64,000 nt of DNA. Origin: Escherichia coli. Its GTDB lineage: Bacteria > Pseudomonadota > Gammaproteobacteria > Enterobacterales > Enterobacteriaceae. Below, piece after piece: positions 17,727 through 64,000 of the stretch. Below the pieces are notes generated by a model that had not been told where the DNA came from, made no database searches, and saw nothing but the letters and a program-made list of their open reading frames with translations. The DNA lies in NCBI RefSeq assembly GCF_044324875.1, contig NZ_CP172186.1; one strand, written 5' to 3'. The position numbers and the translations under genes are program-made. Positions within the stretch are counted from its first letter, which is position 1. Each line of letters begins with the position of its first letter.

Positions 17727-17737
17727 ATCCGCCCAAC

Positions 17738-44864: not shown

Positions 44865-44990
44865 GCGCATGCAAAATGGCATCTGAATCGATCGCAGTTT
44901 GGCATTCGAATCGATCATGATTTGGCATCCATCTCCGATCACAGTTTGGCATCACAATCGATCACGATTTGGCATGCTTCCGATCATTGA

Positions 44991-46637: not shown

Positions 46638-46653
46638 CAGAAGGAACAACAGT

Positions 46654-47409
46654 ATGAGTGATAACCTGTTAAACAAACTGACCCAACTGAAACTCCCGGC
46701 GATGGCCGGGAGCCTGATACGGCAGCGGGAAACGCCTCAGACCTACGACGAACTGTCGTTCGAGGAAAGGCTGACGCTGCTGGTTGATGACGAGCTTCTG
46801 AGCAGGGAAAACAGCCGTGTGGCACGGTTGAGAAAAAATGCCGGCCTGAAATACCAGGCAACACCGGAAGGGCTGCGCTATCCGGCCTCAAGAGGTCTGC
46901 GGGCTGAACAGATGAGAGAACTGCTGAACGGCCACTACATAACCCACAGGAAAAACCTGCTGATAACCGGTCCGACAGGATGTGGCAAGAGCTGGATAGC
47001 CAATGCGCTGGGCGAACAGGCATGTCGACAGAAACACAGCGTCCGGTACTGTAGAACCGGGCGATTACTGGAACAACTGGCTCAGGGACGTGTTGATGGC
47101 AGCTGGCTGAAATATCTGAAACAGTTGCAAAAAATACAGGTTCTAATCCTGGACGATCTGGGGCTGGAACAGTTAAGTAACGCCCAGTGTAATGACCTTC
47201 TGGAGCTCATAGAGGATCGTTACGGACAAAGCAGCACGATAGTGGTAAGCCAGTTCCCGGTAGATAAATGGCATGGTCTGATGGAGAACCCAACAACAGC
47301 AGATGCCATCCTGGACAGACTGGTACATAACTCACACCGAGTGGTCCTTCAGGGAGAGTCACTGAGGAAAAATCCCCCGGTAGTGGAAAGCAGCGAAAAA
47401 ACGCGTTAA
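46654..47409 (+). CDS. istB: IS21-family helper ATPase IstB
   Basis: 251 aa; Walker A GPTGCGKS, Walker B VLILDDLG. Confidence 0.9.
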   Translation: MSDNLLNKLTQLKLPAMAGSLIRQRETPQTYDELSFEERLTLLVDDELLSRENSRVARLRKNAGLKYQATPEGLRYPASRGLRAEQMRELLNGHYITHRKNLLITGPTGCGKSWIANALGEQACRQKHSVRYCRTGRLLEQLAQGRVDGSWLKYLKQLQKIQVLILDDLGLEQLSNAQCNDLLELIEDRYGQSSTIVVSQFPVDKWHGLMENPTTADAILDRLVHNSHRVVLQGESLRKNPPVVESSEKTR

Positions 47410-47508
47410 AAAGCGGTAGAAAAAGTTAAGTTCCCGGTTGATCGAATGGATGCGAATCGCTGATCGGACTTCGATGCCAATCCGTGATCGAATAGAGCGG
47501 AATACGCA

Positions 47509-48225
47509 AGCGCACGTTCACGGGCACTGATCCCCCTCAGCGCAGAACAACAGGCCGCTATGCAGGCTGTGGCTGTCACCGAACAACGTCGTCGTCAGGG
47601 ACGCACACTTTCAGCATGGCCTTATGCCACCGCTTTCTTTCGCTGCCTGAATGGCAGTCGCCGGATTTCGCTGACCGATCTCCGCTTTTTTGCCCCTGCG
47701 CTGACGAAGGAGGAATTTCATGGCAACCGTCTCCTGTGGCTGGCTGCAGTGGACAAACTGATTGAAAGTTTTGGTGAAGTCTGTGTTCTTCCCCTGCCAT
47801 CCGATGCGGGGCATCGTTTGTTCCCGTCCGTTCCTTTTCGTGAAGGTGAGCGGCGTCGTCAGAAAACCACGCTGACAGAGCAGAAATACAGCCGCCAGCG
47901 GGAACGTGAGGCAGAACGACGGGAACGGGAATACCAGACATGTTTTGCTCAGGCGCAGATTGACCTTGCGTTTCATACTCCCGCCACGGTCGGAAGCTGG
48001 TTGTCCCGCTGGTCTGGTGTTGTTGAGGAGCATGATCTGGAAACGATTTTCTGGGGGTGGTGCGGGCGTTTTCCATCACTGTCATCATTTGACCGGTTTT
48101 TCTGGCAGGAGGAACCACTCTGGCGGTTGATTTTTGAAGCCGGTGAGGCCGGTCGTGGTGCACCGGTACAGGTACGTGCACTTGAGCAGTGGATGATCCC
48201 GAACAAGCTGGAGAACGTAATATGA
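47509..48225 (+). pseudogene. psiA: psiA, disrupted after codon 3 by the IS21-family element (an N-truncated product from ATG 47560 remains possible)
   Basis: ATG AGC GCA at 44861-44869 then IS; frame resumes SARSLAIPLSAEQQAAMQAV... Confidence 0.75.
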
Positions 48226-48818
48226 TGAAATCAGACGAAAAATACCAGGTTCCCGCGTGGATGCGACCTCTGTTGCCGTTGCTCTGCAACACCGGGGAGA
48301 ACGATCCGGAAGAACTGCTGAATGATACAGAAACCACTGCCAGTGCGAATGTTGTCCGTTATGTGCTGATAGTTGCTGTGCGGTCGCAGGTTGATCTGCT
48401 GCAGCTTCTGTACAGGAAAGGGCTGTTGCGCACAGAGATACCAGGTGGCTTTTCACCGGAAGAAGCGCAGGAACTCCTGGATAATCTGGTGCGCAGCCAT
48501 ATCAGCAGGGCGCTGTCGGGTGAGCGAATGGCAGCCCGTGACAGGAATGCCGATCTGGCCTGGATTCGACAGCAACTGGTCGATGCCGCCTGGTTTGTCC
48601 GTGCCACACTGGAAGCGCATGGGATGAGCGTCGGAAATGAGAGTCCCCCTGCTCAGCCGGAGACAATGCCGGACATACAGACACGGGAACTGGTGATGTT
48701 GATCAAGCGACTGGCATCATCGCTGAAAGCGGTGAAACCGGACAGTTGTGTGGTGCGTGAAGCGCAGGACTGGCTGCGCGACAGAAAACTTGTGAGCATC
48801 ACGGATGTTCTTCGGTGA
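48222..48818 (+). CDS. Hypothetical leading-region protein
   Basis: 198 aa from ATG 48222. Confidence 0.55.
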   Translation: MMKSDEKYQVPAWMRPLLPLLCNTGENDPEELLNDTETTASANVVRYVLIVAVRSQVDLLQLLYRKGLLRTEIPGGFSPEEAQELLDNLVRSHISRALSGERMAARDRNADLAWIRQQLVDAAWFVRATLEAHGMSVGNESPPAQPETMPDIQTRELVMLIKRLASSLKAVKPDSCVVREAQDWLRDRKLVSITDVLR

Positions 48819-48926
48819 ACCAGTGGAGGTATGCTTGAGGAGCAGGGACATGCCGGCCATGATCGTTTCGTTCCAGGGGTGGTCTGGAGATCATGCGGCG
48901 TGTCCTCTGCACTCGCCGGAATAAGG

Positions 48927-49265
48927 ACGTCGCCGCCGGCTCCGCTTTTACCCGGCCATGCGGGGCATGGCCTTGTGGGTTTTCAGCTCTGTGGCCTCAG
49001 CGTCGTGTGCGGGCTGTGCCGTGCCTCCATCGTAGCCGGGCTTCTGCGGGCGGGATGCAAGGTAAGATGAACCGCTGCGGTCACCCGGTCCCTCCTTCCC
49101 GTCTGCCGTGATTTTCCGGTCGTTCACCCGCTCAGATTTCGCGGTCTCACCCTCCAACTCCCGTCAGCCGTGCGCGTCGGGCTGCGGCTTTCCTTGCGCC
49201 CTTGCATCCCTGCAGGCCCGGCAAAGATGGAGGCACGGCACCGCCCGGTGTCGCAGAACATGTGA
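48927..49265 (+). repeat. GC-rich direct repeat family A, copy 2 (upstream of ardA)
   Basis: Near-identical to 36691-37030. Confidence 0.6.
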
Positions 49266-49282
49266 CTATGGAGGATTCGGGA

Positions 49283-49783
49283 ATGTCTGTTGTTGCACCT
49301 GCTGTATACGTTGGAACCTGGCACAAATATAACTGCGGAAGCATCGCCGGCCGCTGGTTTGACCTGACCACGTTTGATGATGAACGCGATTTTTTCGCCG
49401 CCTGCCGTGCCCTTCACCAGGATGAAACCGATCCGGAACTGATGTTTCAGGATTATGAGGGTTTCCCGGGGAATATGGCCTCTGAATGTCATATCAACTG
49501 GGCCTGGGTTGAAGGCTTCCGCCGGGCACGGGATGAAGGCTGCGAAGAGGCTTATCGTCTCTGGGTGGATGATACCGGTGAGACGGATTTTGACAGCTTC
49601 CGCGATGCCTGGTGGGGCGAGGCTGACAGTGAGGAGGCTTTTGCGGTTGAGTTCGTCAGTGATACCGGCCTGCTGGCTGACGTGCCGGAGACGGTGGCGC
49701 TCTATTTTGACTATGAGGCGTATGCGCGGGATTTATTCCTGGACTCCTTCACCTTTATTGACGGTCATGTGTTCCGTCGGTGA
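49283..49783 (+). CDS. ardA: ArdA antirestriction protein (DNA mimic)
   Basis: MSVVAPAVYVGTWHKYNCGSIAGRWFDL...; 166 aa, very acidic; GGAGGA RBS. Confidence 0.85.
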   Translation: MSVVAPAVYVGTWHKYNCGSIAGRWFDLTTFDDERDFFAACRALHQDETDPELMFQDYEGFPGNMASECHINWAWVEGFRRARDEGCEEAYRLWVDDTGETDFDSFRDAWWGEADSEEAFAVEFVSDTGLLADVPETVALYFDYEAYARDLFLDSFTFIDGHVFRR

Positions 49784-49959
49784 TTTACTCCCCCGCTCCG
49801 GCGGGGGTATGGCCTGCCGGGCCGCCGGAAAACCCTGGCAGGCTTACGCCTGCCTGAAATACAGGAGGGCCGCGCCTGCGGCGCTGCCCTTCCTGCCCGT
49901 CATGGTGTGAGGCATTTTTCTGTTTTGTCGTTTCTGTTGTTCTGATGCCCGGAGGCGGG

Positions 49960-50500
49960 GACACCCTTCGGCTCCCGGCTGCCTGGCGGCATCCGGTCGT
50001 CGGCCCGACTCCGACAGGCAGCTGCTGGCGCACCCGCCAGTCTCCGCCGAACCCGCTGGCGCGGTTTCGGGCTGCCGCTACGGTCCGATGTCTGAAAAAC
50101 CAGGCCTGCAGCGACCGTTCCGGTCGCGCCGCCCCTGTCGCGCCGGAAACGGCGCTCCCTGCACACCTGACGGTGTGTAAGGCCACTGCGCCTGATGGCG
50201 CAGTCAACCCTTCCGCCGCCACCCCTGCGGCCTGTTTCCCGCTGTGGACTTTCCGGGGGCTGAAGCGGCCACAACACGGGGCAGCCGTCCAGGGGAGAGA
50301 TGTACCAGCCACAAAACTTTTTGCCGCAGGCGTCAAAAACTTTTGCGTCTGCCCCCGGACAACTGCCCCGTGCCGTGGCAGTCGCTGCCCCATCGGAAAG
50401 GTCCACTGCGGGGAGAAACCCCGAAGAAGTGGACGGCAGAAGGGGCTTTCGCCCCTCCGGGGGAGCAACCGGTCGGCCCGGCGACCTGATTCAGCAGAAG
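49960..50500 (+). repeat. GC-rich direct repeat family B, copy 2
   Basis: See 38300-38870. Confidence 0.6.
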
Positions 50501-50511
50501 GAGACGTTTTC

Positions 50512-50946
50512 ATGACAGTCAGCAGCACGATTTCCGTTTTTTGCCGAGACGGGGTGTTCCGTACCGTTTACTGCCACCTGCACGGTGAGCCGACCTGGAA
50601 CGGTCGCATCCTGCATACCCACTATGCCACCGGTCAGCTGGCCGAAGCCCTGGTTGAACACGGAGATATCCGTTGCCTCGGTCCCCGTTGCGACAAACCC
50701 GCCGGGCATACGCTTCAGAACCCGGTGGACGGTGTGACGGCTTATTACGGACGTGACAGTGGTTTCCGGATGGACAGTGAGGCGCGTGAGTACCGTTCTT
50801 TCAGGGAGGCTATTGCCACTGAAAGCACTGAAGAGGTGCGCTTCCATTATGTGTTCATCGACGGCTACTGGAAGGTGATGTACCGCACGCCGGAAGGCTG
50901 GAAGATGAAAGCGCTCGCGCTGGCACTGCGTCGCTGTCCGGAATGA
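50512..50946 (+). CDS. Hypothetical leading-region protein
   Basis: 144 aa from ATG 50512 (MTVSSTISVF...), AGGAGA RBS; the tracked 333-aa ORF upstream part lies in repeat B. Confidence 0.6.
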   Translation: MTVSSTISVFCRDGVFRTVYCHLHGEPTWNGRILHTHYATGQLAEALVEHGDIRCLGPRCDKPAGHTLQNPVDGVTAYYGRDSGFRMDSEAREYRSFREAIATESTEEVRFHYVFIDGYWKVMYRTPEGWKMKALALALRRCPE

Positions 50947-51037
50947 AAAAAAGCAGGGCGATAAACCCTGCCTCTCTCCGCCGCTGCTTCCCGGCCAGGA
51001 AGAGCGGCAGTCATCAACAACATAAGGAGAAATATTT

Positions 51038-51304
51038 GTGAGACCATCAATTATCTTCGCAACCGCCGAGTATGTAAAGCGTCTGCGTGAAGAGTGCCTG
51101 CGGGAGAATAAACCCCTGCACCGCCATACCCGCTTCAGACGTCAGGAGCTGGCACAGGATGAGATTAACCCGGACGTCCTGGCGATGAGCGGTCATATCG
51201 CCAGACGCTGCAGTGAGCAGAAGCGGGTGCGTATCCCCGCCATGAAAGTCAGCGAATGGGGCCACCTGCTCCGCGCGCTTGAAATTGAACGGGTCTGTCA
51301 CTGA
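51038..51304 (+). CDS. Hypothetical protein
   Basis: 88 aa; GGAG RBS. Confidence 0.5.
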   Translation: MRPSIIFATAEYVKRLREECLRENKPLHRHTRFRRQELAQDEINPDVLAMSGHIARRCSEQKRVRIPAMKVSEWGHLLRALEIERVCH

Positions 51305-51368
51305 TTAACCCTTGCCGTCTGCCTGTGCAGGCGGCAGGATACGTTCAGACATCTCACCAGGAGGAACC

Positions 51369-52247
51369 GTGAGTAAGAAGAAAAACACCACAACGCCCAC
51401 GCCGCATGATGCCGCGTTCCGGTCGTTCCTGGCGAATCCCGACGTTGCCAGGGATTTTCTGGAGTTGCATCTTCCTGCGGAGTACCGGCAGTTGTGCGAC
51501 CTGTCCACCCTGAAGCTGGAACCCGCCACCTTTGTTGAGCCGGACCTGCATCAGTACGCCAGCGATATCCTCTGGAGTGTGAAAACCACCGGGGGTGAAG
51601 ACGGCTATGTTTATACGCTCATCGAGCACCAGAGCACCGAAAATCTGTACATGCCTTTTCGCATGTTACGTTACAGTGTGGCGGCGATGCAGAGACATCT
51701 GGAGCAGCACAAAACGTTGCCACTGGTCATTCCGGTGCTGTTCTATCACGGTGAGCGCAGCCCGTACCCGTACAGCATGAACTGGCTGGACTGTTTTGAG
51801 AATCCGGCACTTGCGGCTAAAATATACACAAAGCCGTTTCCGCTGGTTGATATCACTGTCGTTGATGACAATGAAATCATGAACCATCGCCGGATGGCCG
51901 CACTGACGCTGCTGATGAAGCATATCCGCCATCGTGACATGATGGAGCTGCTGGACAAACTCCCGCAGGTCATGGTGGAAATTTCAGACGAGCAGGTGCG
52001 TGTTCTGATTCATTACATCGTTAACGCAGGGGACACTGTATCACCGGAATTTATGCGGGCGCTGGCCGAGCGCCTGCCGCAGCATGAGGATAAACTGATG
52101 ACAATCGCAGAACGTCTTGAGCAGAAAGGTGCGCTTGAAAAAGCCCTGGCCATTGCGCGTCAGCTTCAGAAAATGGGGATGACACCTGAGCAGATTAAGC
52201 AGGCCACCGGACTTTCCGAAGCTGAACTGAAAAAAGTCATTCACTGA
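51369..52247 (+). CDS. Rpn/YhgA-like recombination-promoting nuclease family protein
   Basis: GTG 51369 after AGGAGG; N-terminal HDAAFRSFLANPDVARDFL...; about 292 aa. Confidence 0.65.
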   Translation: MSKKKNTTTPTPHDAAFRSFLANPDVARDFLELHLPAEYRQLCDLSTLKLEPATFVEPDLHQYASDILWSVKTTGGEDGYVYTLIEHQSTENLYMPFRMLRYSVAAMQRHLEQHKTLPLVIPVLFYHGERSPYPYSMNWLDCFENPALAAKIYTKPFPLVDITVVDDNEIMNHRRMAALTLLMKHIRHRDMMELLDKLPQVMVEISDEQVRVLIHYIVNAGDTVSPEFMRALAERLPQHEDKLMTIAERLEQKGALEKALAIARQLQKMGMTPEQIKQATGLSEAELKKVIH

Positions 52248-52308
52248 TGAGAGCATCACAGCCCGGCAAAATGCCGGGCTTTTTGCCAGCAGGAGCAGAG
52301 CAAACAGC

Positions 52309-52527
52309 ATGACGATTGCAGAACGTCTTATACAGAAAGGTTTCGACGAGGGTTTTAAAGAAGGTTTTAAACAAGGTTTTAAACAAGGTTTTAAACAAGG
52401 AGCTCTTGAAGTGGCGCGGGAAATAGCCTGCCGGCTTCGGGATATAGGCTGGTCGCCGGAACGGATTCAGGAGGTCACGGGACTTTCCGGTGAAGAACTG
52501 AAAAAGCTGTTTCCTGATGAGCAGTAG
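52309..52527 (+). CDS. Small ORF resembling the C-terminal tail of the Rpn-like protein, with GFK(E/Q)GFKQ tandem repeats
   Basis: MTIAERLIQKG...GLSGEELKK parallels ...MTIAERLEQKG...GLSEAELKK of the upstream gene. Confidence 0.4.
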   Translation: MTIAERLIQKGFDEGFKEGFKQGFKQGFKQGALEVAREIACRLRDIGWSPERIQEVTGLSGEELKKLFPDEQ

Positions 52528-52557
52528 CCTGGCATTCAGCCAGGCTGTGAATCACGC

Positions 52558-52809
52558 TCACACATCCTCTGCCGTTTCCCCCAGTTCATTTTCCAGTCGC
52601 CTGATGATATCTGCCTTACGCATCCCCTGCATGTGAGGCAGCAGGTCACGGACTGAAAGTGCCTGGGTGGTCCTCCAGACGGTGACGTCCACCTGTTCCG
52701 CATTTTCCCAGGCGTGCCATGTTCTCTGCGTCACGCCAAATTCTCTGGCCGCTTTTTCGCGTGACCAGAGCATGCTTTTTCGCCAGATTCGCAGTTCCCA
52801 TCCGGTCAT
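52558..52809 (-). CDS. HTH (XRE-like) DNA-binding protein
   Basis: 83 aa; AAREFGVTQRTWHAWE HTH-like segment; twin palindromes upstream. Confidence 0.5.
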   Translation of the reverse strand: MTGWELRIWRKSMLWSREKAAREFGVTQRTWHAWENAEQVDVTVWRTTQALSVRDLLPHMQGMRKADIIRRLENELGETAEDV

Positions 52810-52823
52810 AAAACACCTTTGAA

Positions 52824-52909
52824 AAAGTGAAAAAACTTCACTTTATTTTATCATCACAATTGCCAAATCAGCGCGATAAATAAGTGTAAAAAAGTGAAGA
52901 AATTTCACT
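52824..52909. promoter_or_regulatory. Two palindromic operator-like sites AAGTGAA-N5-TTCACTT upstream of the HTH gene
   Basis: 52824-52842 AAGTGAAAAAACTTCACTT and 52891-52909 AAGTGAAGAAATTTCACTT. Confidence 0.5.
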
Positions 52910-53019
52910 TTTTTTGGTTGTAAATGTCGTGCGGTTTTCTCTGTTTTCACCTGTGCGGGAGTGGTGTGCCAGTGACCACCACATGCCATTGTTGTGCCGT
53001 CGTTTTTCTTCAGTCGCGC

Positions 53020-53370
53020 CGGATGCGGCGCTCCCTGCACACCTTACGGTGTGTAAGGCCACTGCGCCTGATGGCGCAGCTGCCTCTGCCTGTCTGCCGC
53101 CGCACTGCGGCCTGTTCTCCGCAGACGGACTTTCCGGGGGTACATACACGACCACATCCCGTTTCAGTCGTCCAGGGGAGAGATGTACCAGCCACAAAAC
53201 TTTTTGCCGCAGGCGTCAAAAACTTTTGCGTCTGCCCCCGGACAACTGCCCCGTGACGTGGTGAGCGTCCCCCGTCGGAAAGGTCCACTGCGGGGAAATC
53301 CCCGAAGACCCGGACGGCAGAAGGAGCTTCGCTCCTCCGGGAAATGACCTGGCTGACCCGGCAGTCGTGA
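53020..53370 (+). repeat. GC-rich direct repeat family B, copy 3 (partial)
   Basis: See 38300-38870. Confidence 0.55.
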
Positions 53371-53388
53371 CGATGAGGAGACAATGTG

Positions 53389-54237
53389 ATGAATCAGACT
53401 TTACCCACTGCTGACCTGAATACTGCCGGCACGACAGATGTTATTCCGTCTGTGGCTATCGACCGCATCATCGCGCAGCGTAACGAAGGTATTGCACTGT
53501 TCATGCAGGCGATGGAATGCCTGGCGACAGCGCGCAGGATTCTGCTCGATGCTTCCGGTGACATTTTTCTCTACGGGTTTGAAGACTGCGTGACTGACTC
53601 CGTTCGATGCATGGATAAACCGGAAGAAGCGAAAAGGAATATCACCCGTCTTGCCGACCGGAAAATCTGGGACCGCCTGATGACAGATACGGGCATGTAC
53701 ACCTTCATGAGTTCATGCCAGCGTGATGAGTGGAACAGCCAGCTGATGAGCGACACCTGTCCTGAAATCACCCTGGACAATGTACTGGCAACATTCCGCC
53801 ATCTTAATGCCAGCAAGATGCAGACATTTGAACAGGGACTGATTGATGTCTACCGGAAATTGTCATGGGATTACAGAACCAATAATCCCTGCCGTCTGGG
53901 CAAGAAAATCATTATTGAAAACCTGCTGTACCGCTGGAGTAACGGGCGTGTGACGCTGGACTGCAGCAGACGGGAGGCACTGGATGACCTGGTACGTCCG
54001 TTTTATCTGCTGGAGGGGCGCAACGTTCCTGACTTCAGGAACAGCATCGGGGCGCAGTATGGTGAATTTCTCAGGAACGGCGACAATGTCGGTAAGTTGT
54101 TAGAAGGGGAATATTTTACGGTGCGTGGCTACCAGAAAGGGACCGTACACATTGTCTTTAAGCGTTCTGACCTTGTTGAAAAACTGAATGATATTATTGC
54201 ACGGCATTATCCTGGTGCATTGCCGCCACGAGTCTGA
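53389..54237 (+). CDS. Hypothetical leading-region protein
   Basis: 282 aa from ATG 53389, GAGGAG RBS. Confidence 0.6.
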   Translation: MNQTLPTADLNTAGTTDVIPSVAIDRIIAQRNEGIALFMQAMECLATARRILLDASGDIFLYGFEDCVTDSVRCMDKPEEAKRNITRLADRKIWDRLMTDTGMYTFMSSCQRDEWNSQLMSDTCPEITLDNVLATFRHLNASKMQTFEQGLIDVYRKLSWDYRTNNPCRLGKKIIIENLLYRWSNGRVTLDCSRREALDDLVRPFYLLEGRNVPDFRNSIGAQYGEFLRNGDNVGKLLEGEYFTVRGYQKGTVHIVFKRSDLVEKLNDIIARHYPGALPPRV

Positions 54238-54322
54238 TTAAACAGAAAAGCCCTGGTATTTATGCCGGGGCTTTTTTTTCTGTAATCATCATAATCTCAG
54301 AACACGATGTGACATTGTCACA

Positions 54323-54664
54323 TCAATTGTTGTTCATATCGATGCCATCTTTCCTGCCTGAATCTGTCTTTTTAGGTGCTGTTTTAGAGGAAGAACGGCG
54401 GGATGTTTTTTTCGATTCTGCTTCCCGAATAATGTCACGAAGTGCCTTCTCTCCTACTTCATACCCTGCATTTTTGAGCGTGTCACGAATATCTGCCAGT
54501 GTATAACCCTTTGTCCTTACCAGGACAATAATGTCATCACGAATGGCATCAAGAAAATCACGCAATGTTTTCCGTTGAGCGGTGAGATCTGGCAATTCCG
54601 ATAAAGCAGCTTTTGCCAGCTGGATGTCATCATCTGAGTAAAATTTTTTAGAAGCCATTGGCAC
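54323..54664 (-). CDS. Hypothetical protein (basic C-terminus)
   Basis: 113 aa ORF. Confidence 0.5.
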   Translation of the reverse strand: MPMASKKFYSDDDIQLAKAALSELPDLTAQRKTLRDFLDAIRDDIIVLVRTKGYTLADIRDTLKNAGYEVGEKALRDIIREAESKKTSRRSSSKTAPKKTDSGRKDGIDMNNN

Positions 54665-54699
54665 TTTCTCTCCGTTTAATCTTGAAGCCTGATTTTATC

Positions 54700-54890
54700 A
54701 TCAAAAACTGACTCCTGGCAGGGCTGCGCCCTGCCTCTGCCGTCTGCATAAGACTATGATGCACAAAAATAACAGGCTATAATGGCATGAAAAACGGGAC
54801 AGGATGTGTAATCGTATAACCGCGCACGCACGGCTATACGATTACCACCTGGTCAGGGCTTAGCCCCGACACCCCGGTAAGGAGCAGACC
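54700..54890. other. oriT-like region upstream of nikA
   Basis: 11-bp inverted repeat GTAATCGTATA / TATACGATTAC (54808-54845) immediately upstream of nikA-nikB. Confidence 0.5.
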
Positions 54891-55223
54891 ATGAGTGAGA
54901 AGAAAACCCGAAGTGGCAGTGAGAAACGGCAAAAGAATGTCCTCATTGCTGTTCGTTTTTCACCAGAAGAGGCTGAGATTGTTAAAGAAAAGGCAGAAAA
55001 AAACGGACTGACAGTTTCAACTCTGATAAGAAAAACTGTGCTGGGAAAACAGATAAATGCCCGCATTGATGAAGATTTTTTGAAAGAGCTGATGCGTCTT
55101 GGTCGCCTGCAGAAGCATCTGTTTGTGGAAGGAAAACGCACGGGAGATAAAGAGTATGCAGAGGTTCTCGTTGCTATTACAGAACTTGCTAATACTCTGC
55201 GAAGAGATTTAATGGGACGCTGA
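54891..55223 (+). CDS. nikA: NikA relaxosome accessory protein (RHH)
   Basis: 110 aa directly upstream of the relaxase gene. Confidence 0.8.
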   Translation: MSEKKTRSGSEKRQKNVLIAVRFSPEEAEIVKEKAEKNGLTVSTLIRKTVLGKQINARIDEDFLKELMRLGRLQKHLFVEGKRTGDKEYAEVLVAITELANTLRRDLMGR

Positions 55224-55234
55224 GATAATCGCTG

Positions 55235-57937
55235 ATGAATGCCATCATTCCGAAAAAAAGACGCGACGGAAAGTCTTCTTTTGAAGACCTGATTGCGTAC
55301 ACCTCAGTGCGGGATGATGTGCCGGAAGATGAACTCAGACCAGACACGGAAGTGAAAGGTGAGGTTCCGCACCGGAATCGCTTCAGACGTCTTGTTGATT
55401 ATGCAACACGTCTGCGTAATGAAAAATTTGTTTCCCTGATTGATGTGATGAAAGACGGCAGTCAGTGGGTGAATTTCTATGGTGTGACCTGCTTTCATAA
55501 CTGTTTGTCTCTTGAATCTGCGGCTGAAGAAATGCAGAAAGCAGCAGACCTTGCTTATTTTTCCAAAGATGATACAGATCCTGTTTTTCACTATATTCTC
55601 TCCTGGCCTGCGCACGAAAGTCCGCGTTCTGAGCAGCTTTTTGACTGTGTGCGTCACACCCTGAAATCCCTTGAGCTGTCAAAACATCAGTATGTGGCAG
55701 CCGTTCATACAGACACGGATAACCTGCATGTACATGTTGCAGTGAATCGTGTCCACCCTGAAACCGGCTATATCAATTGCCTTCCGTGGAGCCAGGAAAA
55801 ACTCAGCCGTGCATGTCGTGAACTTGAACTTAAGCACGGATTCGCGCCGGATAATGGCTGCTTTGTGCATGCACCCGGCAACCGTATTGTGCGCAAAACA
55901 GCGCTGGTACGTGAGCGCCGTAATGCCTGGCGACGCGGGAAAAAGCAGACGTTCAGGGAATATATTGCTCAGATGTCGATTGCCGGGCTGCGTGAAGAGC
56001 CTGCACAGGACTGGTTATCTTTGCATAAACGGCTGGCCAGCGATGGTCTGTATATCACGATGCAGGAAGGGGAACTGGTGGTGAAGGATGGCTGGGACAG
56101 AGCGCGGGAAGGTGTTGCACTCAGTTCGTTCGGACCGTCATGGACAGCTGAAAAACTGGGGCGGAAACTGGGGGAATATCAGCCTGTACCGACAGATATT
56201 TTCAGTCAGGTGGGGACACCCGGTCGTTATGATCCGGAAGCCATAAACGTTGATATCCGGCCGGAAAAAGTGGCAGAAACGGAGAGTCTGAAACAGTACG
56301 CCTGCCGTCACTTTGCTGAACGCTTACCGGCAATGGCGCGCAATGGTGAACTGAAAAGCTGCCTGGCTGTACACCGTACTCTGGCAGAGGCGGGATTATG
56401 GATGGGGATCCAGCACGGGCATCTGGTACTGCATGATGGATTTGATAAACAACAGACACCAGTACGTGCAGACAGTGTGTGGCCGTTGTTAACGCTGGAA
56501 AATATCAGAAAACTGAATGGCGGCTGGCAGTCTGTACCGAAGGATATTTTTACTCAGGTTGTACCACAAAGTCGCTTTAGTGGGCATCGAATGGATATGC
56601 ATCCGGTCAGTGATCATGAATGGCACAGAATGAGAACAGGGGCTGGCCCACAGGGGGCAATTAAGCGGGAGATTTTCTCTGACAAAGAGAGTCTGTGGGG
56701 ATATGCAGTCAGCCATTGTGCCCGTGATATTCAGTACATGATCTCTGAAGGGCGCTTTAGCTGGCAGAACTGCCATGAACTGTTTGCCCGCAGTGGACTG
56801 ATGTTACAGAAACTGCATCATGGTCTTGTGATTGTGGATGCGTTTAATCATGACCAGACACCGGTTAAAGCCAGCAGCATTCATCCGGATTTGACTTTGT
56901 CCAGAGCAGAGCCGCAGGCCGGGCCATTTGAAATTGCAGCGGCGGATATTTTCGATCGGGTGAAGCCTGAAAGCCGTTATAACCCTGATATGGCTGTCAG
57001 TGACAGTAAGGAACCCGGGTTTAAACGGGATCCTGAATTGCGCCGCCGTCGTCGTGAAACCCGTGCAGCTGCGCGGGAAGATTTGCGTGCGCGTTACCTT
57101 GCATGGAAGGAGCACTGGCGTAAACCCGATTTACGTTACGGCGAACGGTTACGGGAAGTTCATGCTGCCTGCCGCCGGCGCAAGGCGCATATCCGCGTAC
57201 AGTTCAGGGATCCGCAAGTGCGTAAGCTGCATTACCATATTGCGGAAGTGCAGCGAATGCAGGCGCTGATCAGGCTGAAGGAAAGCGTCAGGGAAGAGCG
57301 ACTGTCGCTGATGGCGGAAGGTAAGTGGTACCCGCTGTCTTACAGGCAGTGGGTGGAGCAGATGGCGGTTCAGGGGGATTCTGCTGCTGTATCTCAGTTA
57401 CGTGGATGGAATTATCGCGACAGAAGGAATGATGAGGTGCTTTTAACCACGCCTCAACGCTGTGTGGTTCTTTGTGAACCAGGCTCCACCCCGATTCACA
57501 GGGATATCGGTGGCATGGTGGCGACTTTGCAGCGTAATGGCAGTGTGCGTTTCCGTGATGCGACAACAGGAGAGTACGTCTGTACAGATTATGGTGATCG
57601 CGTTGTTTTCAGCAACAGTGCCGATAACAAAACACTGAAGAAAAGGATGGTCAGGGTGTCCAGTGTGCTTTTTGCAAGGGATCCCCGAATGGGGTTTGAG
57701 CCGGAAGGTCAGGATGCACAATTTAACCGTATGTTTGCTGATATGGTTGCGTGGAAAAACGTGCAGCGGGATGAGCGTAAGGGGCACTACAGGATAAGTC
57801 GTTCTGATGTTGATCAACTGAGGGTCAGTAGTGAAAAACGTTTTCGTGATTATCTTAAAGGGCGTGATACTGAATCACACACTTACCATCATGCAACGGA
57901 TGAAAATAAGTGGGAGCCGCCATCACCGGGGATGTAA
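55235..57937 (+). CDS. nikB: NikB-type relaxase (MOBP family)
   Basis: 900 aa; His-triad motif HTDTDNLHVHVAVNRV. Confidence 0.85.
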   Translation: MNAIIPKKRRDGKSSFEDLIAYTSVRDDVPEDELRPDTEVKGEVPHRNRFRRLVDYATRLRNEKFVSLIDVMKDGSQWVNFYGVTCFHNCLSLESAAEEMQKAADLAYFSKDDTDPVFHYILSWPAHESPRSEQLFDCVRHTLKSLELSKHQYVAAVHTDTDNLHVHVAVNRVHPETGYINCLPWSQEKLSRACRELELKHGFAPDNGCFVHAPGNRIVRKTALVRERRNAWRRGKKQTFREYIAQMSIAGLREEPAQDWLSLHKRLASDGLYITMQEGELVVKDGWDRAREGVALSSFGPSWTAEKLGRKLGEYQPVPTDIFSQVGTPGRYDPEAINVDIRPEKVAETESLKQYACRHFAERLPAMARNGELKSCLAVHRTLAEAGLWMGIQHGHLVLHDGFDKQQTPVRADSVWPLLTLENIRKLNGGWQSVPKDIFTQVVPQSRFSGHRMDMHPVSDHEWHRMRTGAGPQGAIKREIFSDKESLWGYAVSHCARDIQYMISEGRFSWQNCHELFARSGLMLQKLHHGLVIVDAFNHDQTPVKASSIHPDLTLSRAEPQAGPFEIAAADIFDRVKPESRYNPDMAVSDSKEPGFKRDPELRRRRRETRAAAREDLRARYLAWKEHWRKPDLRYGERLREVHAACRRRKAHIRVQFRDPQVRKLHYHIAEVQRMQALIRLKESVREERLSLMAEGKWYPLSYRQWVEQMAVQGDSAAVSQLRGWNYRDRRNDEVLLTTPQRCVVLCEPGSTPIHRDIGGMVATLQRNGSVRFRDATTGEYVCTDYGDRVVFSNSADNKTLKKRMVRVSSVLFARDPRMGFEPEGQDAQFNRMFADMVAWKNVQRDERKGHYRISRSDVDQLRVSSEKRFRDYLKGRDTESHTYHHATDENKWEPPSPGM

Positions 57938-58005
57938 AAATCATGTAGACAGGGTGATTAAATCACCGTAATGTGTCCTCGTTGTGTATACATTATGGGG
58001 GAGAT

Positions 58006-58254
58006 ATGCGAACACAGGTGACACTGCAAAAATGGGGCAACAGTATTGCTCTCCGGTTAACCGGAAATCTGAAAACCGTGCCGGGTTTTTCGGCAGGAGA
58101 TGTGGTTGATGTGGAAATCAGTGAGAAAGGATTGATCGTGGAAAAACCGGTGAGACCTCGTCTTACAGAGGCTGTATTGCTTGCGGGGCTGACGCCATTT
58201 TCCGCGCATGCAGATGAAGCTGCCACTCTTCTTGATAAGGAGAGTGAGTTCTGA
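58006..58254 (+). CDS. pemI: PemI/MazE-type antitoxin
   Basis: MRTQVTLQKWGNSIALRL (AbrB/SpoVT fold); 82 aa. Confidence 0.8.
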   Translation: MRTQVTLQKWGNSIALRLTGNLKTVPGFSAGDVVDVEISEKGLIVEKPVRPRLTEAVLLAGLTPFSAHADEAATLLDKESEF

Positions 58255-58598
58255 TGTTTGTTCCAAAGCGTGGTGATATTTGCTGGCTTGATTTTGAACC
58301 CCAAAAAGGAAAAGAAATTGGCAAATATCGTCCGGCATTAATCCTGTCCCATGAGCAATATAATCGTTTAACAGGGCTTGTCATATGCTGCCCTGTCAGT
58401 ACGAGTATCCGGGGCGCTCCAACAGAGGTTCCTGTTACTAATCTCGATGCACCAAGTGTGGTGGCCACAACGCTCATACAGACACTTGACTGGCGGCAAA
58501 GGCAAGTGCGTTTAATTACGGAAGCAGAAGAGGGCGTATTTGATGAGGTGCTTGAGAGAGTGATCACTCTGATTGGTGGTGAACATTTACTGAAGTGA
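58254..58598 (+). CDS. pemK: PemK/MazF-type toxin
   Basis: 114 aa MFVPKRGDICWLDFEPQKGKEIGKYRPALILS... Confidence 0.85.
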   Translation: MFVPKRGDICWLDFEPQKGKEIGKYRPALILSHEQYNRLTGLVICCPVSTSIRGAPTEVPVTNLDAPSVVATTLIQTLDWRQRQVRLITEAEEGVFDEVLERVITLIGGEHLLK

Positions 58599-58633
58599 AG
58601 GAGCCTGTTTAAGATTCTGTGTAAATGCCTTTC

Positions 58634-58852
58634 TCAGAAGTGACCGTCCAGGCGGTCACCGAACTCGATAATAAAGCGGCTCATTGCCATTCGCCAGTCC
58701 TTCAACGGCATCGTCCATTTCCGGGACGCAGACTGGATTGCCAGCCACACCACTTTTTTCACCGAGTCGTCTGTCGGGAACACTTTACGCTTTTTGATCG
58801 CATGGCGGATCACGCTGTTTAGCGACTCGATGGCATTCGTCGTATAGATCAC
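58634..58852 (-). pseudogene. IS256-family transposase, C-terminal fragment
   Basis: ...NAIESLNSVIRHAIKKRKVFPTDDSVKKVVWLAI... typical mutator-family C-terminus; abuts IS629-like copy C. Confidence 0.6.
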
Positions 58853-58908
58853 TTTGAACCGCCCCGGAAATCCTGGAGACTAAACTTCCTGAGAAAGATG
58901 TAAACAGG

Positions 58909-59235
58909 ATGACTAAAAATACTCGTTTTTCCCCCGAAGTCCGTCAACGGGCAGTTCGTATGGTTCTGGAAAGCCAGGGCGAATATGACTCACAATGGGC
59001 GGCAATTTGTTCCATTGCTCCAAAGATTGGCTGTACGCCAGAGACCCTGCGTGTCTGGGTTCGCCAGCATGAGCGGGATACCGGGGGCGGTGATGGTGGG
59101 CTCACCACCGCTGAACGTCAGCGTCTGAAAGAGCTGGAACGCGAAAATCGTGAACTGCGCCGCAGTAACGATATCCTTCGCCAGGCTTCCGCTTATTTTG
59201 CGAAGGCGGAGTTCGACCGCCTCTGGAAAAAATAA
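58909..59235 (+). CDS. IS3-family transposase OrfA
   Basis: Identical to 15208-15534 product. Confidence 0.9.
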
Positions 59236-59256
59236 TGCCACTGCTGGATAAGCTGC

Positions 59257-60102
59257 GTGAGCTGCAGTGAGCTGCATATTGCCCCGTCAACGTATTACCA
59301 CTGTCAGCAACAGCAGCATCATCCTGATAAACGCAGCGCCCGTGCGCAGCGTGATGACTGGCTGAAGAAAGAGATACAGCGCGTATACGATGAAAATCAC
59401 CAGGTGTACGGTGTGCGTAAAGTCTGGCGTCAGTTGTTACGGGAAGGTATCAGAGTGGCCAGATGCACTGTGACACGTCTTATGGCGGTTATGGGTTTTG
59501 CCGGTGTTCTCCGGGGTAAAAAGGTCCGCATTACCGTCAGCCGGAAAGCCGTTGCCGCAGGCGACCGCGTAAACCGTCATTTCGTGGCAGAACGTCCTGA
59601 CCAGCTGTGGGTGGCTGATTTTACTTACGTCAGCACATGGCAGGGCTTTGTTTATGTGGCGTTCATCATTGATGTGTTTGCCGGATACATCGTGGGATGG
59701 CGGGTCTCCTCGTCCATGGAAACGACATTCGTGCTGGATGCACTGGAGCAGGCGTTGTGGGCCCGTCGTCCGTCTGGCACCATCCATCACAGCGATAAAG
59801 GCTCTCAGTATGTATCGCTGGCCTACACGCAGCGGCTTAAGGAAGTCGGATTACTGGCATCAACAGGGAGCACAGGCGACTCGTATGACAACGCGATGGC
59901 GGAGAGCATCAATGGTCTTTACAAGGCGGAGGTAATACACCGTAAGAGCTGGAAAAACCGGACAGAAGTGGAGCTGGCTACACTCACGTGGGTGGACTGG
60001 TATAACAATCGACGATTGCTGGAAAGGCTGGGCCATACTCCCCCGGCAGAAGCAGAAAAAGCTTATTATGCTTCCATCGGAAACAATGATCTGGCAGCCT
60101 GA
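59257..60102 (+). CDS. IS3-family transposase OrfB
   Basis: 281 aa. Confidence 0.85.
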   Translation: MSCSELHIAPSTYYHCQQQQHHPDKRSARAQRDDWLKKEIQRVYDENHQVYGVRKVWRQLLREGIRVARCTVTRLMAVMGFAGVLRGKKVRITVSRKAVAAGDRVNRHFVAERPDQLWVADFTYVSTWQGFVYVAFIIDVFAGYIVGWRVSSSMETTFVLDALEQALWARRPSGTIHHSDKGSQYVSLAYTQRLKEVGLLASTGSTGDSYDNAMAESINGLYKAEVIHRKSWKNRTEVELATLTWVDWYNNRRLLERLGHTPPAEAEKAYYASIGNNDLAA

Positions 60103-60141
60103 GTTCACAGACAAAACATTCTCCAGGAAACCCGGGGCGGT

Positions 60142-60603
60142 TCAGTTTTGCCATTCTACAACCTGCTCCATCACGGCATCGGTAACCTTTGATATCAGTG
60201 CCGGTGAAACATCTGCGTCATACAGTTCTTTGAACGCAGCGGCTATCTCACGGGTGGTCATCCCTTTGGCATACAACGAGAGGATCTGGTTATCCATCCC
60301 GGTAATACGGGTCTGATTTTTCTTTACCAGTTGTGGTTCGAAGGTACCGTCACGATCGCGCGGAGTACGCAGTTCCAGTGGACCGTCGCCTGTGATAACG
60401 GTCTTTGTGGAATAACCGTTGCGGGAGTTAGCTCCTGGTCTGGACTGATTTTTCTCATACCCAAGATGGTGTGTCATCTCTGCATTGAGAGCGGCTTCAA
60501 CGCTGAGCTTTTTCAGCAGCCGATCAAACTGACTGAGGTCTTCAGGGGTTTTGAGGTTTTTGGCCAGTTCGTTAGCCAGAGCCTGTAACTGTTTTTCGTC
60601 CAT
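60142..60603 (-). pseudogene. IS256-family transposase, N-terminal fragment
   Basis: MDEKQLQALANELAKNLKTPEDL...RNGYSTKTV...PRDRDGTFEPQLV...SLYAKGMTTREI mutator-family N-terminus; ends at the IS629-like boundary. Confidence 0.7.
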
Positions 60604-60689
60604 AAATTAACCTTCATTTGATGCTGGATTGAACATATCAAAATCAGGCAATTACACAAATCTATGTACAGGCTCTTCCGCTGGCTGGC

Positions 60690-60935
60690 TCACCTGCGTC
60701 GCGCCGGCTGCCAGGTAAACGTGTTCTCTGCGGCACGATACGCTTTTGTTCGTTGAGCCTTTGCGGTTCTCGCTTTGCGCTCTGCCCGAATCATTCTCAA
60801 AACTTTTACACGCACTTTTCTCTTAACTTCCCGTGGCAGTTCATCCCTGCCGGACAACTTTAACTGTGCAGCCTGTGCGGCATAAGCATCGTTGATACGC
60901 TTACGTTCTGCTTCCGTCAGTTTCATCCAAGACAT
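60690..60935 (-). CDS. Hypothetical basic protein
   Basis: 81 aa ORF; Lys/Arg-rich. Confidence 0.3.
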   Translation of the reverse strand: MSWMKLTEAERKRINDAYAAQAAQLKLSGRDELPREVKRKVRVKVLRMIRAERKARTAKAQRTKAYRAAENTFTWQPARRR

Positions 60936-61073
60936 AATTCCTCCTGGTGACTTATCCGTGTTATGTCTTTAATCTGTATCCCCTTCGTTGCTATGCCTCC
61001 GGGATATCAGGTATTACCTTTCGAAGAATTTTATAAAAAACCACCTGTGCAGAGGGAAAGAGTGGATTTGCCC

Positions 61074-61979
61074 CTATATTTCCAGACATCTGTTATCACT
61101 TAACCCATTACAGGCCCGCTGCCGCAGATATTCCCGTGGCGAGCGATAACCCAACGCACTATGCGGATGCCATTCGTTATAATGCTCGAACGCCTCTGCA
61201 AGGTTCTTTGCTGCCGTTAACCCGTCTGGTTTGGGCATGACACTGATGTAGTCACGCTTTATCGTTTTCACGAAGCTCTCTGCTATGCCGTTACTCTCCG
61301 GACTCCGCACCGCCGTGTTCTTCGGTTCAAGCCCCAACATCCGGGCAAACTGCCGTGTTTCATTAGCCCGGTAGCATGAACCATTATCCGTCAGCCACTC
61401 TACTGGAGACGCCGGAAGCTCGTTGCCGAAGCGGCGTTCCACCGCTCCCAGCATGACGTCCTGTACTGTTTCACTGTTGAAGCCGCCCGTAGTGACCGCC
61501 CAGTGCAGTGCCTCACGGTCACAGCAGTCCAGCGCGAACGTGACTCGCAGTTTTTCTCCGTTATCACAGCGGAACTCGAACCCGTCAGAGCACCATCGCT
61601 GATTACTTTCTTTCACAGCCACTCTGCCGGTATGTGCCCGTTTCGATGGCGGTACAGCGGTTTTTCGCTCAAGCAACAGCGCATTCTGGCGCATGATCCG
61701 GTAAATACGTTTGGCATTGATCGCAGGCATACCATCAAGTTCTGTTTGTCTGCGAAGCAGCGCCCATACCCGACGATAACCATATGTGGGTAGCTCTCCG
61801 ATAACATGGTGTATACGGCGAAGCACATCCGTATCATCCGTGTGACGGCTGCGGCGGCCGTCCTTCCAGTCATCGGCTCGTCTGAGAATGACGTGCAACT
61901 GCGCACGCGACACCCGGAGACAACGGCTGACGAAGCTTACTCCCCATCCCCGGGCAATAAGGGCGCGTGCGCTATCCAC
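61074..61979 (-). CDS. insD: IS2 InsD
   Basis: 301 aa. Confidence 0.9.
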
Positions 61980-62302
61980 TTTTTTGCTCGCCCATATTCA
62001 ACGGCTTCTTTAAGGAGTTCATTTTCCATCGTTTTTTTGCCGAGCAGACGCTGGAGTTCTTTAATCTGCTTCATGGCGGCAGCAAGTTCAGAGGCAGGAA
62101 CGATCTGTTCTCCGGCAGCCACAGCAGTAAGACTTCCCTCCTGGTATTGCTTACGCCAGAGAAATAGCTGGCTGGCTGCCACACCATGTTGCCGGGCAAC
62201 AAGGGAGACCGTCATTCCCGGTTCAAAGCTCTGCTGAACGATAGCGATCTTTTCCTGTGTAGTACGCCGTCTGCGTTTCTCCGGCCCTAAGACATCAATC
62301 AT
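61937..62302 (-). CDS. insC: IS2 InsC
   Basis: [24 protein letters not shown]...; ATG at 62302. Confidence 0.9.
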
Positions 62303-63528
62303 CTGTTCTCCAATGACTAGTCTAAAAACTAGTATTAAGACTATCACTTATTTAAGTGATATTGGTTGTCTGGAGATTCAGGGGGCCAGTCTAAAGAGTA
62401 AGGAACTTACTGATTCATTTAATATTATTATCCATCAATAACTGAGCATACAAAAAAATAACAAAACTCTGACACAGATACAACCAGCTCTCTCTATATC
62501 AGACTGACATTCTTCTCAAAAAGAGGCGTGTTCTGGAACACGGAACAGAAGCAATGAACATTGTAGACAGAAACACACTCTGTTTTTTACACGAGGATAT
62601 ATGTCGGGAAAATCAGGCAGAAGAAATTAAAGGACTTTGTGCATACAAAGGGAAAGCGCGTTTCCGGTGCACCATATTAGATATTATCCCTGCTACAAAC
62701 ACCAGAGACGCGCTCATAACTCTTCTAGCGTAAAATATCCTTTCAGGCAAGGAAAAGGTCGTGATACAGAATCACGACCTTAATTTTATCGAAAACACGG
62801 ATTTTAGTATGCACATGACTGTACTCCTCAGGAGTACAGGGAAATCATAATCAGTAACAAAAACACCCGGCAACAAAAATTTAACGCGTTTACGCTATTT
62901 TTGTGACAAATATTGCAAATATGGAATCACTGTATTTTTACTGCAACAAAATCTGGTTGATCCACAGGCGGATCCGGGGTAAAAAATTATCCGGAATGTT
63001 TCTGCGTGGTGTGGTAAAACCTCTAGCCGGATTGCCTTTGCAGCAACGCAGGAACATTCCATCCTTTATCAGTACTCCTGACGCTGTAAAGACCTGGCTG
63101 ATGCAGACAGGACTGCTGATATCGAATCAAAGCTTTCTCATTTTTTCGCGTACACAAAATAAAACAAATCAGGCAATTCCTTACACTCCCCCTCTAAAAT
63201 TGAGGGTTTTTTTTTACCATATAAATTACTTGCACAGCTTTTAAAAAAATTGCAAATCTTTACTGTAGTGTCGGGCTTCATGTAGCTCAACAGGGCATGG
63301 ACTAAAAAGAAGTAAACCCATCTTTTATCTCCCTGATATGGGGGTCTTTGTGGCATAAAGAATTCCTTGAATTATTATTTTGATCATATCAACATGAAAA
63401 GAATAATACTCTGACTTTTGATTTCCAGTGCCAGATATAAAATCAAATTCACTGTAAATATCACATAATGATATCTGGCTGCCCCCAGTCACTTCCTGTA
63501 TTCAGCCACACATATAAGCCCCCTGAAT

Positions 63529-63565
63529 TTCCTTGTGGTTTTTATGTGATAAAAACCACAAGGAA
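63529..63565. repeat. Perfect 16-bp inverted repeat with 5-bp spacer in an AT-rich non-coding region
   Basis: TTCCTTGTGGTTTTTA-tgtga-TAAAAACCACAAGGAA. Confidence 0.7.
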
Positions 63566-63656
63566 ACGATGGTTGAAATAATATTTAAAATGTGAAAGAT
63601 ATCACCCGTAGAATTTTTCAATCCGACACTCCATAGAATGGACCTTTAAGATTTAA

Positions 63657-63683
63657 TCCTCATCATGTATGAGGATTTTTTTT
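63657..63683 (+). terminator. Possible rho-independent terminator
   Basis: TCCTCAT-catgt-ATGAGGA followed by T8. Confidence 0.35.
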
Positions 63684-63981
63684 CTGGCAGACAAAAATAT
63701 CTTTTCAGCAATCCCTGTTCAGTTCCGGTTCTGGTGACTCTGGAAGAGGTATTGTTACACGCTATAACCTGCCGGAATGACTCAGGTCCGTTCATCTCTG
63801 ATACCATTAAAAGAAGCATTAAGCACATTCTGAGCGCCTCTTACAGAAGAAGCGGAACGCGTTCCTGGCTCCTGTTGCATAATCTTACTAACCCCATGGT
63901 TTTCTTGACTGCCAGAAACGCGCCCACAGTTTTTTTAGCCTGTCTCCGGTTCCTTGTCTAGAATACTGTTGATTTTTTGTT

Positions 63982-64000
63982 TGAACCGCCCCGGGTTTCC
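63982..64000 (-). mobile_element. Terminal IR of a further IS3-family (IS629-like) copy, cut by the window end
   Basis: TGAACCGCCCCGGGTTTCC equals the reverse complement of the right ends of copies B and C. Confidence 0.55.

Follow-up and report, generated by a model that had tools for sequence, protein, structure and literature searches.

An IS629/IS1203-type element occupying the gap in an IS1414 copy of an Escherichia coli plasmid

The window analyzed here, a 64,000-nucleotide stretch of an Escherichia coli plasmid, carries near its right-hand end two fragments of the IS256-family insertion sequence IS1414, separated by an IS3-family element of the IS629/IS1203 type. Four IS629-type copies lie in the window: A, B, C, and the start of D. 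Copy C is the one set between the IS1414 fragments, and the features around it are as follows.

58593-58600, no strand: AAGTGAAG, the left copy of the 8-bp target duplication bounding an IS1414-ended block; the right copy lies outside the window, beside trbC in related plasmids.
58601-58854, minus strand: IS1414 end fragment with the terminal inverted repeat (GAGCCTGT...) and the last 73 transposase codons; open reading frame (ORF) remnant 58634-58852.
58855-60144, plus strand: copy C, IS629/IS1203-type IS3-family element of 1,290 bp, with inverted repeats intact and transposase broken.
58909-59235, plus strand: orfA of copy C, 108 aa, intact, Pfam HTH_Tnp_1.
59190-59276, plus strand: remnant of the ALIL frameshift pseudoknot of copy C, with a 20-bp deletion between 59263 and 59264.
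59257-60102, plus strand: orfB remnant of copy C with the rve/DDE domain, in the same frame as orfA and behind the TAA stop of orfA.
60145-60675, minus strand: IS1414 fragment comprising the opposite terminal repeat and transposase codons 1-153 (60145-60603); ORF 60142-60603.

The flanking element was named IS1414, of the IS256 family, by BLAST against public plasmids. The transposase gene of IS1414 harbors astA, the gene for the EAST1 toxin (McVeigh et al. 2000, as cited in PMC12585946), and a survey of astA in E. coli describes most IS1414 copies as inactivated through deletions or mutations (PMC12585946). As reference we used the intact 1,314-bp copy on plasmid p948 of ETEC H10407 (locus L009, 3001-4314), which has a 402-codon transposase gene, astA at 3414-3527 of that locus, and an 8-bp target site duplication (TSD), AACCCAAC. 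The left fragment corresponds to IS1414 positions 1 to 254 (98.8% identity) and the right one to positions 784 to 1314 (99.6% identity), both on the minus strand, and the gap between them is exactly 529 bp, or 176.3 of the 402 codons. The gap includes all of astA, normally encoded in the -1 frame of the transposase gene and absent here. The Mutator-type transposase, ~400 aa in the IS256 family, is present as two fragments only: the N-terminal ORF 60142-60603 (153 aa) matches Pfam Transposase_mut (PF00872) with an E value of 9e-36 over profile positions 16 to 153, and the C-terminal ORF 58634-58852 matches it with an E value of 3e-8 over positions 332 to 377. The former ORF takes its stop codon from the final three bases of copy C. 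On the related plasmid pLH50-c-A, RefSeq annotates the equivalents as a "transposase, incomplete, missing N-terminus" (58601-58854) and an "IS256 family transposase, incomplete, missing C-terminus" (60145-60675). The 8-mers adjoining the outer ends at 58601 and 60675 differ (aagtgaag and ttccgctg), and no further IS1414 DNA that could be the missing middle, left by an inversion or translocation, was found elsewhere in the 64-kb window. The initial annotation had read this locus as an IS629-like copy standing in place of the middle of an IS256-family transposase gene, its two fragments in the right order and orientation and about 175 codons missing. That description holds at every point, the deficit against p948 being 176 codons, and both fragments belong to IS1414, not to unrelated genes.

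Copy C begins with TGAACCGCCCCGG and ends with CCGGGGCGGTTCA. Its terminal repeats, IRL TGAACCGCCCCGGAAATCCTGGAGA and IRR, in reverse complement TGAACCGCCCCGGGTTTCCTGGAGA, match at 22 of 25 bases, and these imperfect TG...CA inverted repeats and the length of ~1.3 kb are as expected of the IS629/IS1203 type within the IS3 family. The 281-aa ORF contains the HTH_21, rve, and rve_3 domains of IS3-family transposases (Pfam), and copy C is 92 to 95% identical in DNA to thousands of public plasmid copies annotated as IS3 or as "IS3-like element IS1203 family" (BLAST). It is flanked by ctt on the left and gtt on the right, and copy B by att and ata, with neither a 3-bp nor a 4-bp duplication at either. 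Reciprocal pairings of these flanks, B-left with C-right and C-left with B-right, do not match either. Related simple insertions do carry 3-bp TSDs, CGT in pEF5-18-41_2 (in the same IS1414 copy, 242 bp further along) and GAC in pRHB38-C10_2, indicating that the absence of TSDs at B and C is real and not an alignment artifact.

The transposase of copy C is broken at the point where its two reading frames should be joined. The intact 1,310-bp type has an orfB that overlaps orfA in the -1 frame. When 17 copies were aligned, 20 bp present in every 1,310-bp relative proved to be missing from B, from C, and from the equivalent copies of sister plasmids, so that the -1 frame is shut after 11 codons and the DDE part falls into the orfA frame past its TAA stop. 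The deletion lies in the frameshift pseudoknot: Rfam ALIL (RF01497) scores 63.8 bits in copy C versus 116.2 bits in the intact 1,310-bp copy D of pLH50-c-A, and the match in copy C, which is still above the gathering score of 50, has its 3' stem-loop cut from 29 model positions to 3. RefSeq/PGAP likewise annotates both 1,290-bp copies of pLH50-c-A as "IS3 family transposase, frameshifted" pseudogenes and the intact copy D with a "programmed frameshift." The full-length 1,290-bp variant was listed for only ~18 of the 3,367 plasmid records matching the element; in 33 records the best match reaches at least 99% identity. Since the shared deletion breaks OrfAB, B and C are probably nonautonomous. 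With the programmed -1 orfA-orfB fusion no longer possible, the element appears to be a degenerate IS3-family member by descent and not a functional one. Today only two roles would be left to B and C: offering 1.29 kb of homology to RecA-type recombination, or moving in trans with the help of intact relatives such as A or D.

The three other IS629-type copies of the window are the following.

1953-3076, minus strand: copy A, the first 1,124 bp of a 1,310-bp-type IS629-type element, cut at 1953 by the IS66-family element ISCro1.
15154-16443, plus strand: copy B, the same defective 1,290-bp element as C, between an autotransporter gene and the eit iron-transport operon.
63982-64000, minus strand: copy D, the first 19 bp (IRR end) of a fourth IS629-type copy, inverted relative to C and running off the window.

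Copy A is 92% identical to C and keeps the 20 bp missing from it; it is 99.5 to 99.8% identical to copy D and to the copy in the scr region of pLH50-c-A. At copy D the window ends in ...GATTTTTTGTT/TGAACCGCCCCGGGTTTCC, and a full copy D stands at the same ...GATTTTTTGTT junction in the plasmids pLH50-c-A, pCh101, and pEGY2. Copies B and C align without gaps and are identical at 1,288 of 1,290 positions, the mismatches falling at window positions 15803 and 16071 (IS positions 650 and 918). They lie in direct orientation with their starts 43,701 bp apart, leaving an interval of 42,411 bp, in agreement with the earlier description of near-identical direct repeats 43.7 kb apart that lack TSDs; realignment yielded no 3- to 4-bp match at either copy.

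The missing TSD of copy B has an explanation of its own. The left flank of B runs on into unrelated DNA in an IncHI1B plasmid, the breakpoint lying exactly at the IS end, and its right flank begins at exactly the same base in an Escherichia albertii plasmid. Because each flank occurs apart elsewhere and ends exactly at the IS, B joins two modules that were formerly not contiguous, which accounts for the lack of a duplication. B with the same 20-bp deletion stands at the same site in the IncF plasmid pAPEC-O1-ColBM, which is collinear with window positions 7368-25001 at 99.85%. From these comparisons of sequence, B thus appears to be an old junction element, conserved within the ColV/ColBM virulence module, rather than one recently copied from C. 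Two near-identical direct copies that bracket a large segment could also mark the two ends of one mobile 45-kb segment, transferred whole as a composite transposon or translocatable unit. This is very improbable: the outer flanks show no duplication (att/gatt left of B versus gtt/gttt right of C), B occupies its site in IncF ColBM plasmids that have no C, the segment between the copies is mostly IncK2/Z backbone (nikAB, leading region, and partition genes), and the transposase is defective.

What happened at copy C is best read from related plasmids. The best plasmid matches are pLH50-c-A, 99.9% identical to the window over 47509-64000, and pCh101, neither of which is collinear with the whole window; the 3.2-kb stretch around C is 100% identical to a RefSeq plasmid, in which all four pieces are annotated as pseudogene or partial transposase. 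The IRR junction of C (...GGTTCA/gttttgcc, 60144/60145) is constant in the window, pLH50-c-A, pCh101, and pEGY2. The exception is pLH10-b-1-A, which does not have this sequence on the other side of C and in which the segment 60145-63568 is inverted. The IRL junction varies: the window, pLH50-c-A, and pLH10-b-1-A have it at 58854, pEGY2 has it at 58845, and pCh101 at 58820. A second IS1414 fragment, found in two of these plasmids, stops at 58816-8 (pLH50-c-A) or 58820 (pCh101). The C-left junction is joined to other right-hand sequences in ~10 further plasmids. Two candidates initially taken to share the junctions of C, pCFSAN004179G and pRHB38-C10_2, were dropped when inspection at base level revealed different junctions. 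In pCh101 the C copy has matching flanks (GTT-IS-GTT) despite a 563-bp gap in IS1414.

Misassembly is a well-known hazard with 1.3-kb repeats, and collapsed or misjoined IS repeats would offer a trivial account of the arrangement. Such an artifact is hardly credible, as both junctions of C recur base for base in complete plasmids sequenced independently from Switzerland, Russia, and Egypt, and the C-left junction in about ten more records.

The IS copies themselves are mosaic. At IS positions 650 and 918, B-site copies always carry A/A, and C-site copies carry G/G, G/A, or A/G. Copy D of pCh101 is of B type up to about position 1060 and of D type from 1062 to 1265, and a 1,290-bp copy in pHB42-5 contains a tract of 1,310-type alleles at positions 524 to 677. 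These chimeric copies are direct signs of homologous recombination and gene conversion among IS copies. In pEGY2 the C site is taken by a copy of the intact 1,310-bp type, which is 99.6% identical to D and has another IS inserted in it. We rejected the two differences between C and B as proof of conversion from a 1,310-type copy, since they could equally be ancestral alleles. Moreover, B need not be the donor of the sequence of C, because 1,290-bp copies also occur in IncK2/Z plasmids that apparently lack the ColV module. As a separate observation, the four different IRL junctions are tightly clustered within ~40 bp of IS1414.

The IS1414 fragments belong to a larger insertion. In pLH50-c-A and pCh101, a second IS1414 end fragment, in inverted orientation, comes after copy D, with trbC next; the pEGY2 sequence examined stops inside D. 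In the relatives AAGTGAAG recurs directly past this second inverted end, so that AAGTGAAG brackets the filled site of pLH50-c-A. The site is empty in two plasmids, pRM10042-1 and pA16EC0070-1, with pemK adjoining trbC and the sequence reading ...ttactgAAGTGAAG/CTAAGCACAC..., that is, ...AAGTGAAG/CTAAGCAC.... The duplication of AAGTGAAG, together with these two empty sites, indicates that the whole block was inserted into the backbone as a unit. The simplest reading is that the block would be a composite of two inverted IS1414 copies, since decayed. Among its composite-transposon features, the right border is seen only in pLH50-c-A and pCh101, and both bordering IS1414 copies are now fragments; no second insertion site of the block was found. 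For its right-hand half, which falls beyond the end of the window, the relatives are the only source. Between IS1414 and copy D the block contains IS2 and a gene for an 81-aa hypothetical protein, with no other substantial ORF in that interval. A more ambitious proposal, which we regard as speculative and on balance unlikely, would take the ~6.9-kb pemK-trbC block as an IS1414 composite transposon, mobilized by IS1414 transposase working on two identical outer ends, and, in addition, the IRL clustering as the product of recurrent one-ended processing or excision at IS629-type ends, for example of an IS-excision-enhancer-like kind, and not of chance deletions.

A second IS1414 end fragment beyond D in relatives means that the fragments flanking C need not share one IS1414 copy. 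They might come from different copies, one on the pemK side and one on the trbC side, paired by inversion between C and D, in which case the replaced middle would be partly an illusion. The relatives have two inverted fragments of the IS1414 "L-end" and only one of the "R-end," pEF5-18-41_2 has a full-length IS1414 extending from the trbC side into the 81-aa ORF, as in a flipped arrangement, and C and D are inverted repeats of each other, with pLH10-b-1-A inverted over 60145-63568. Still, any pairing of an L-end with an R-end leaves at least 529 bp of IS1414 missing, with more than 1 kb lost from the other copy, so that a deletion is needed under this reading too; and the two L-end fragments have no discriminating SNPs. 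We consider an origin from different copies possible but rather improbable.

How, then, did copy C come to stand in a gap without a target duplication? Our preferred explanation, which we hold to be likely, is that C is a nonautonomous IS629/IS1203-type relic in a decayed IS1414, brought to its present state via secondary rearrangements and not by a single clean insertion. An IS-associated deletion with later recombination between IS copies accounts best for the missing TSDs, given the fixed right junction, variable left junction, and chimeric IS copies of the IncK2/Z relatives. The history may have run in four steps. A block with the same IS1414 end at both outer edges would first have entered the IncK2/Z pemK-trbC spacer and duplicated AAGTGAAG, a step documented in the relatives. 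An intact 1,310-bp IS629-type element would then have inserted into IS1414, its IRR junction at 60144/60145 remaining fixed ever since. Next, the IS1414 DNA on the IRL side, 529 bp with astA, would have been lost by an IS-associated deletion, either through a second nearby copy and recombination or through a transposase-mediated adjacent deletion. Finally, recombination or gene conversion among IS629-type copies, visible in part in the mosaics, would have swapped flanks and overwritten interiors, giving C the 1,290-bp type that B also has.

The junctions expected of a clean insertion (the IS end followed by CTT and the continuing IS1414, and IS1414 ending in ...GTT followed by the IS start) had no full-length single-piece match in PLSDB; the matches to these queries with 100% coverage belong to different insertions, which lie 40 bp or 239 bp off and in other IS1414 copies. 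As no plasmid was found with a clean IS1414 insertion and a 3-bp TSD, we infer the order of these events and have not observed it. Against this best explanation stand the IRL junctions lying within ~40 bp of one another, unlike random adjacent deletions, and the GTT flanks of pCh101, which could mean insertion into an already deleted IS1414.

A shorter history would have C insert into IS1414 and its own machinery delete the adjacent 529 bp, with no role here for recombination between IS copies. IS-associated deletions are known for the IS629 group, as with IS629 and the IS-excision enhancer in E. coli O157, and one junction fixed with the other variable among relatives is the pattern of deletions growing from one IS end. 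However, the element now at the C site cannot make OrfAB, pEGY2 holds a different IS type at this site, and C-site copies are allelic mosaics; recombination therefore acted at the C site whatever made the deletion, and we judge the single event unlikely.

The direct repeats B and C (1.29 kb, 99.85% identical) are a good recombination substrate. The 42.4-kb interval between them contains the eit iron-transport operon, three toxin-antitoxin pairs (relE/parE-type, vapBC, and pemIK), the parA/parM partition genes, the ssb-psiAB-ardA leading region, nikA/relaxase genes, and oriT. Its length varies among relatives: a group II intron (38921-41581) and an IS21-family element (44870-47508) present in the window are both absent from pLH50-c-A. 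Recombination between B and C would release these 42.4 kb as a circle, which would be expected to be lost; the corresponding part of pLH50-c-A has no annotated replication initiator. The deletion product itself should be counterselected, as the remaining plasmid would be nontransferable and would have shed its addiction modules. A search of the 72,556 plasmid records of PLSDB for the predicted junction of B-left, IS, and C-right returned no record at 80% coverage, which is consistent with such counterselection. The earlier suggestion that the segment could be excised or rearranged by homologous recombination has indirect support as regards rearrangement, from chimeric sister IS copies and from junctions with varied partners; the deletion product is absent from the 72,556 records. 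Points that go beyond the initial annotation are the defective transposase of B and C, the inverted fourth copy D, the second IS1414 end past D, and the age of B.

Overall, the feature is ordinary, the wear left by recombination between repeated IS copies in a poultry-type E. coli plasmid, and the arrangement is already known, near-identical public plasmids carrying it with its parts annotated as pseudogenes. What is mildly novel is limited to the IRL clustering, the GTT flanks of pCh101, and the apparent IS1414 composite. For this plasmid it means that the IS1414 copy is without the EAST1 toxin gene and that two of its IS629-type copies, B and C, are dead elements, useful solely as homology for recombination. 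The relaxase/pemIK-trbC accessory region of poultry IncK2/Z-ColV hybrid plasmids is continually reshuffled. The observations are of use for comparing and typing such plasmids and for reading short-read assemblies broken at these repeats; otherwise they are mere bookkeeping.

Invertible or deletable segments flanked by IS copies are general in large virulence and resistance plasmids, and the present case has the same traits, with portable homology, missing TSDs, and mosaic copies, and nothing specific that differs. Like the IS1414 of p948, the window copy keeps both terminal repeats and both ends of the transposase gene, but it lacks the central 529 bp with astA and has no matching 8-bp flanks. 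It is one more example of the decayed IS1414 copies of the astA survey (PMC12585946), differing from those in that astA itself is deleted here and the gap is filled by another IS; that survey makes no mention of IS629. Compared with the IS629/IS1203/IS3411 group of the IS3 family, found in E. coli and Shigella, copies B and C are 1,290 bp long instead of 1,310 bp, have a broken -1 fusion, have lost half of the ALIL pseudoknot at the orfA/orfB overlap, and lack the 3-bp TSD, but they share with that group the TG...CA ends, an orfA with HTH_Tnp_1, and an orfB with the rve/DDE domain.

IS629-type elements have inserted recurrently into IS1414, the IS256-family element whose two fragments flank copy C (58855 to 60144, plus strand). 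In relatives (loci L002, L004, L005 and L013), four different junctions between the left inverted-repeat end (IRL) of the IS629-type element and IS1414 fall inside ~40 bp, equivalent to window positions 58816 to 58854, whereas the junction at the right end (IRR) is constant. In the related plasmid pCh101, the IS is flanked by GTT on both sides (GTT-IS-GTT), and the gap in IS1414 there is 563 bp.

Relatives also carry a further IS1414 copy that has kept astA (locus L011, pLH50-c-A positions 17981 to 20116). A 1,310-bp IS629-type element, nearly identical to copy A of the window, truncates this copy at IS1414 position 827. On an IncHI1B plasmid (locus L020, 2605 to 2680), an IS1414-like terminal repeat, GAGTCTGTTTAGGATTGTGTGTAAATGCC, lies within ~60 bp past the equivalent of the left breakpoint of copy B, the IS629-type copy at 15154 to 16443.

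The following repeats have at least one member near copy C.

58593-58600 in the window and 1709-1716 in locus L013: 8-bp direct repeat AAGTGAAG, at the edges of a ~6.9-kb block
63982-64000, inverted: start of copy D, a fourth IS629-type copy, which continues past the window end
10080-11310 and 61063-62393, mutually inverted: two IS2 copies, 97% identical and ~50 kb apart

Both outer borders of the ~6.9-kb block are the same IS1414 end, and the empty site of this AAGTGAAG-bounded block is present in plasmids pRM10042-1 and pA16EC0070-1. Its appearance suggests an IS1414 composite transposon that has decayed. Copies C and D form inverted repeats bracketing a 3.8-kb segment (60145 to 63981), which has the opposite orientation in some relatives. 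The inverted IS2 pair is possibly another substrate for inversion. At the second IS2 site (61063 to 62393), plasmid pEF5-18-41_2 is empty, and pEGY2 has an IS2 nearby in the opposite orientation.

Other mobile elements and duplicated segments are distributed along the window.

1-1952: IS66-family element, ISCro1-like, named by comparison with plasmid pLH10-b-1-A
38921-41581: group II intron, with a 633-aa ORF containing RVT_1, maturase and HNH domains; not in pLH50-c-A
44870-47508: IS21-family element with istA/istB-like ORFs; not in pLH50-c-A
36710-37009 and 48947-49246: leading-region direct repeat pair
38352-38838 and 50002-50483: leading-region direct repeat pair
50266-50378 and 53149-53261: leading-region direct repeat pair
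6548-7529 and 26885-27867: two diverged copies of a ~1-kb segment, 87-89% identical

The adjoining IS66-family element truncates copy A at 1953. Direct repeats of the plasmid leading region are 110 to 300 bp long and 80 to 97% identical. Each ~1-kb copy encodes a vapBC toxin-antitoxin pair, judging by comparison with the annotation of pLH50-c-A and the IncF plasmid pAPEC-O1.
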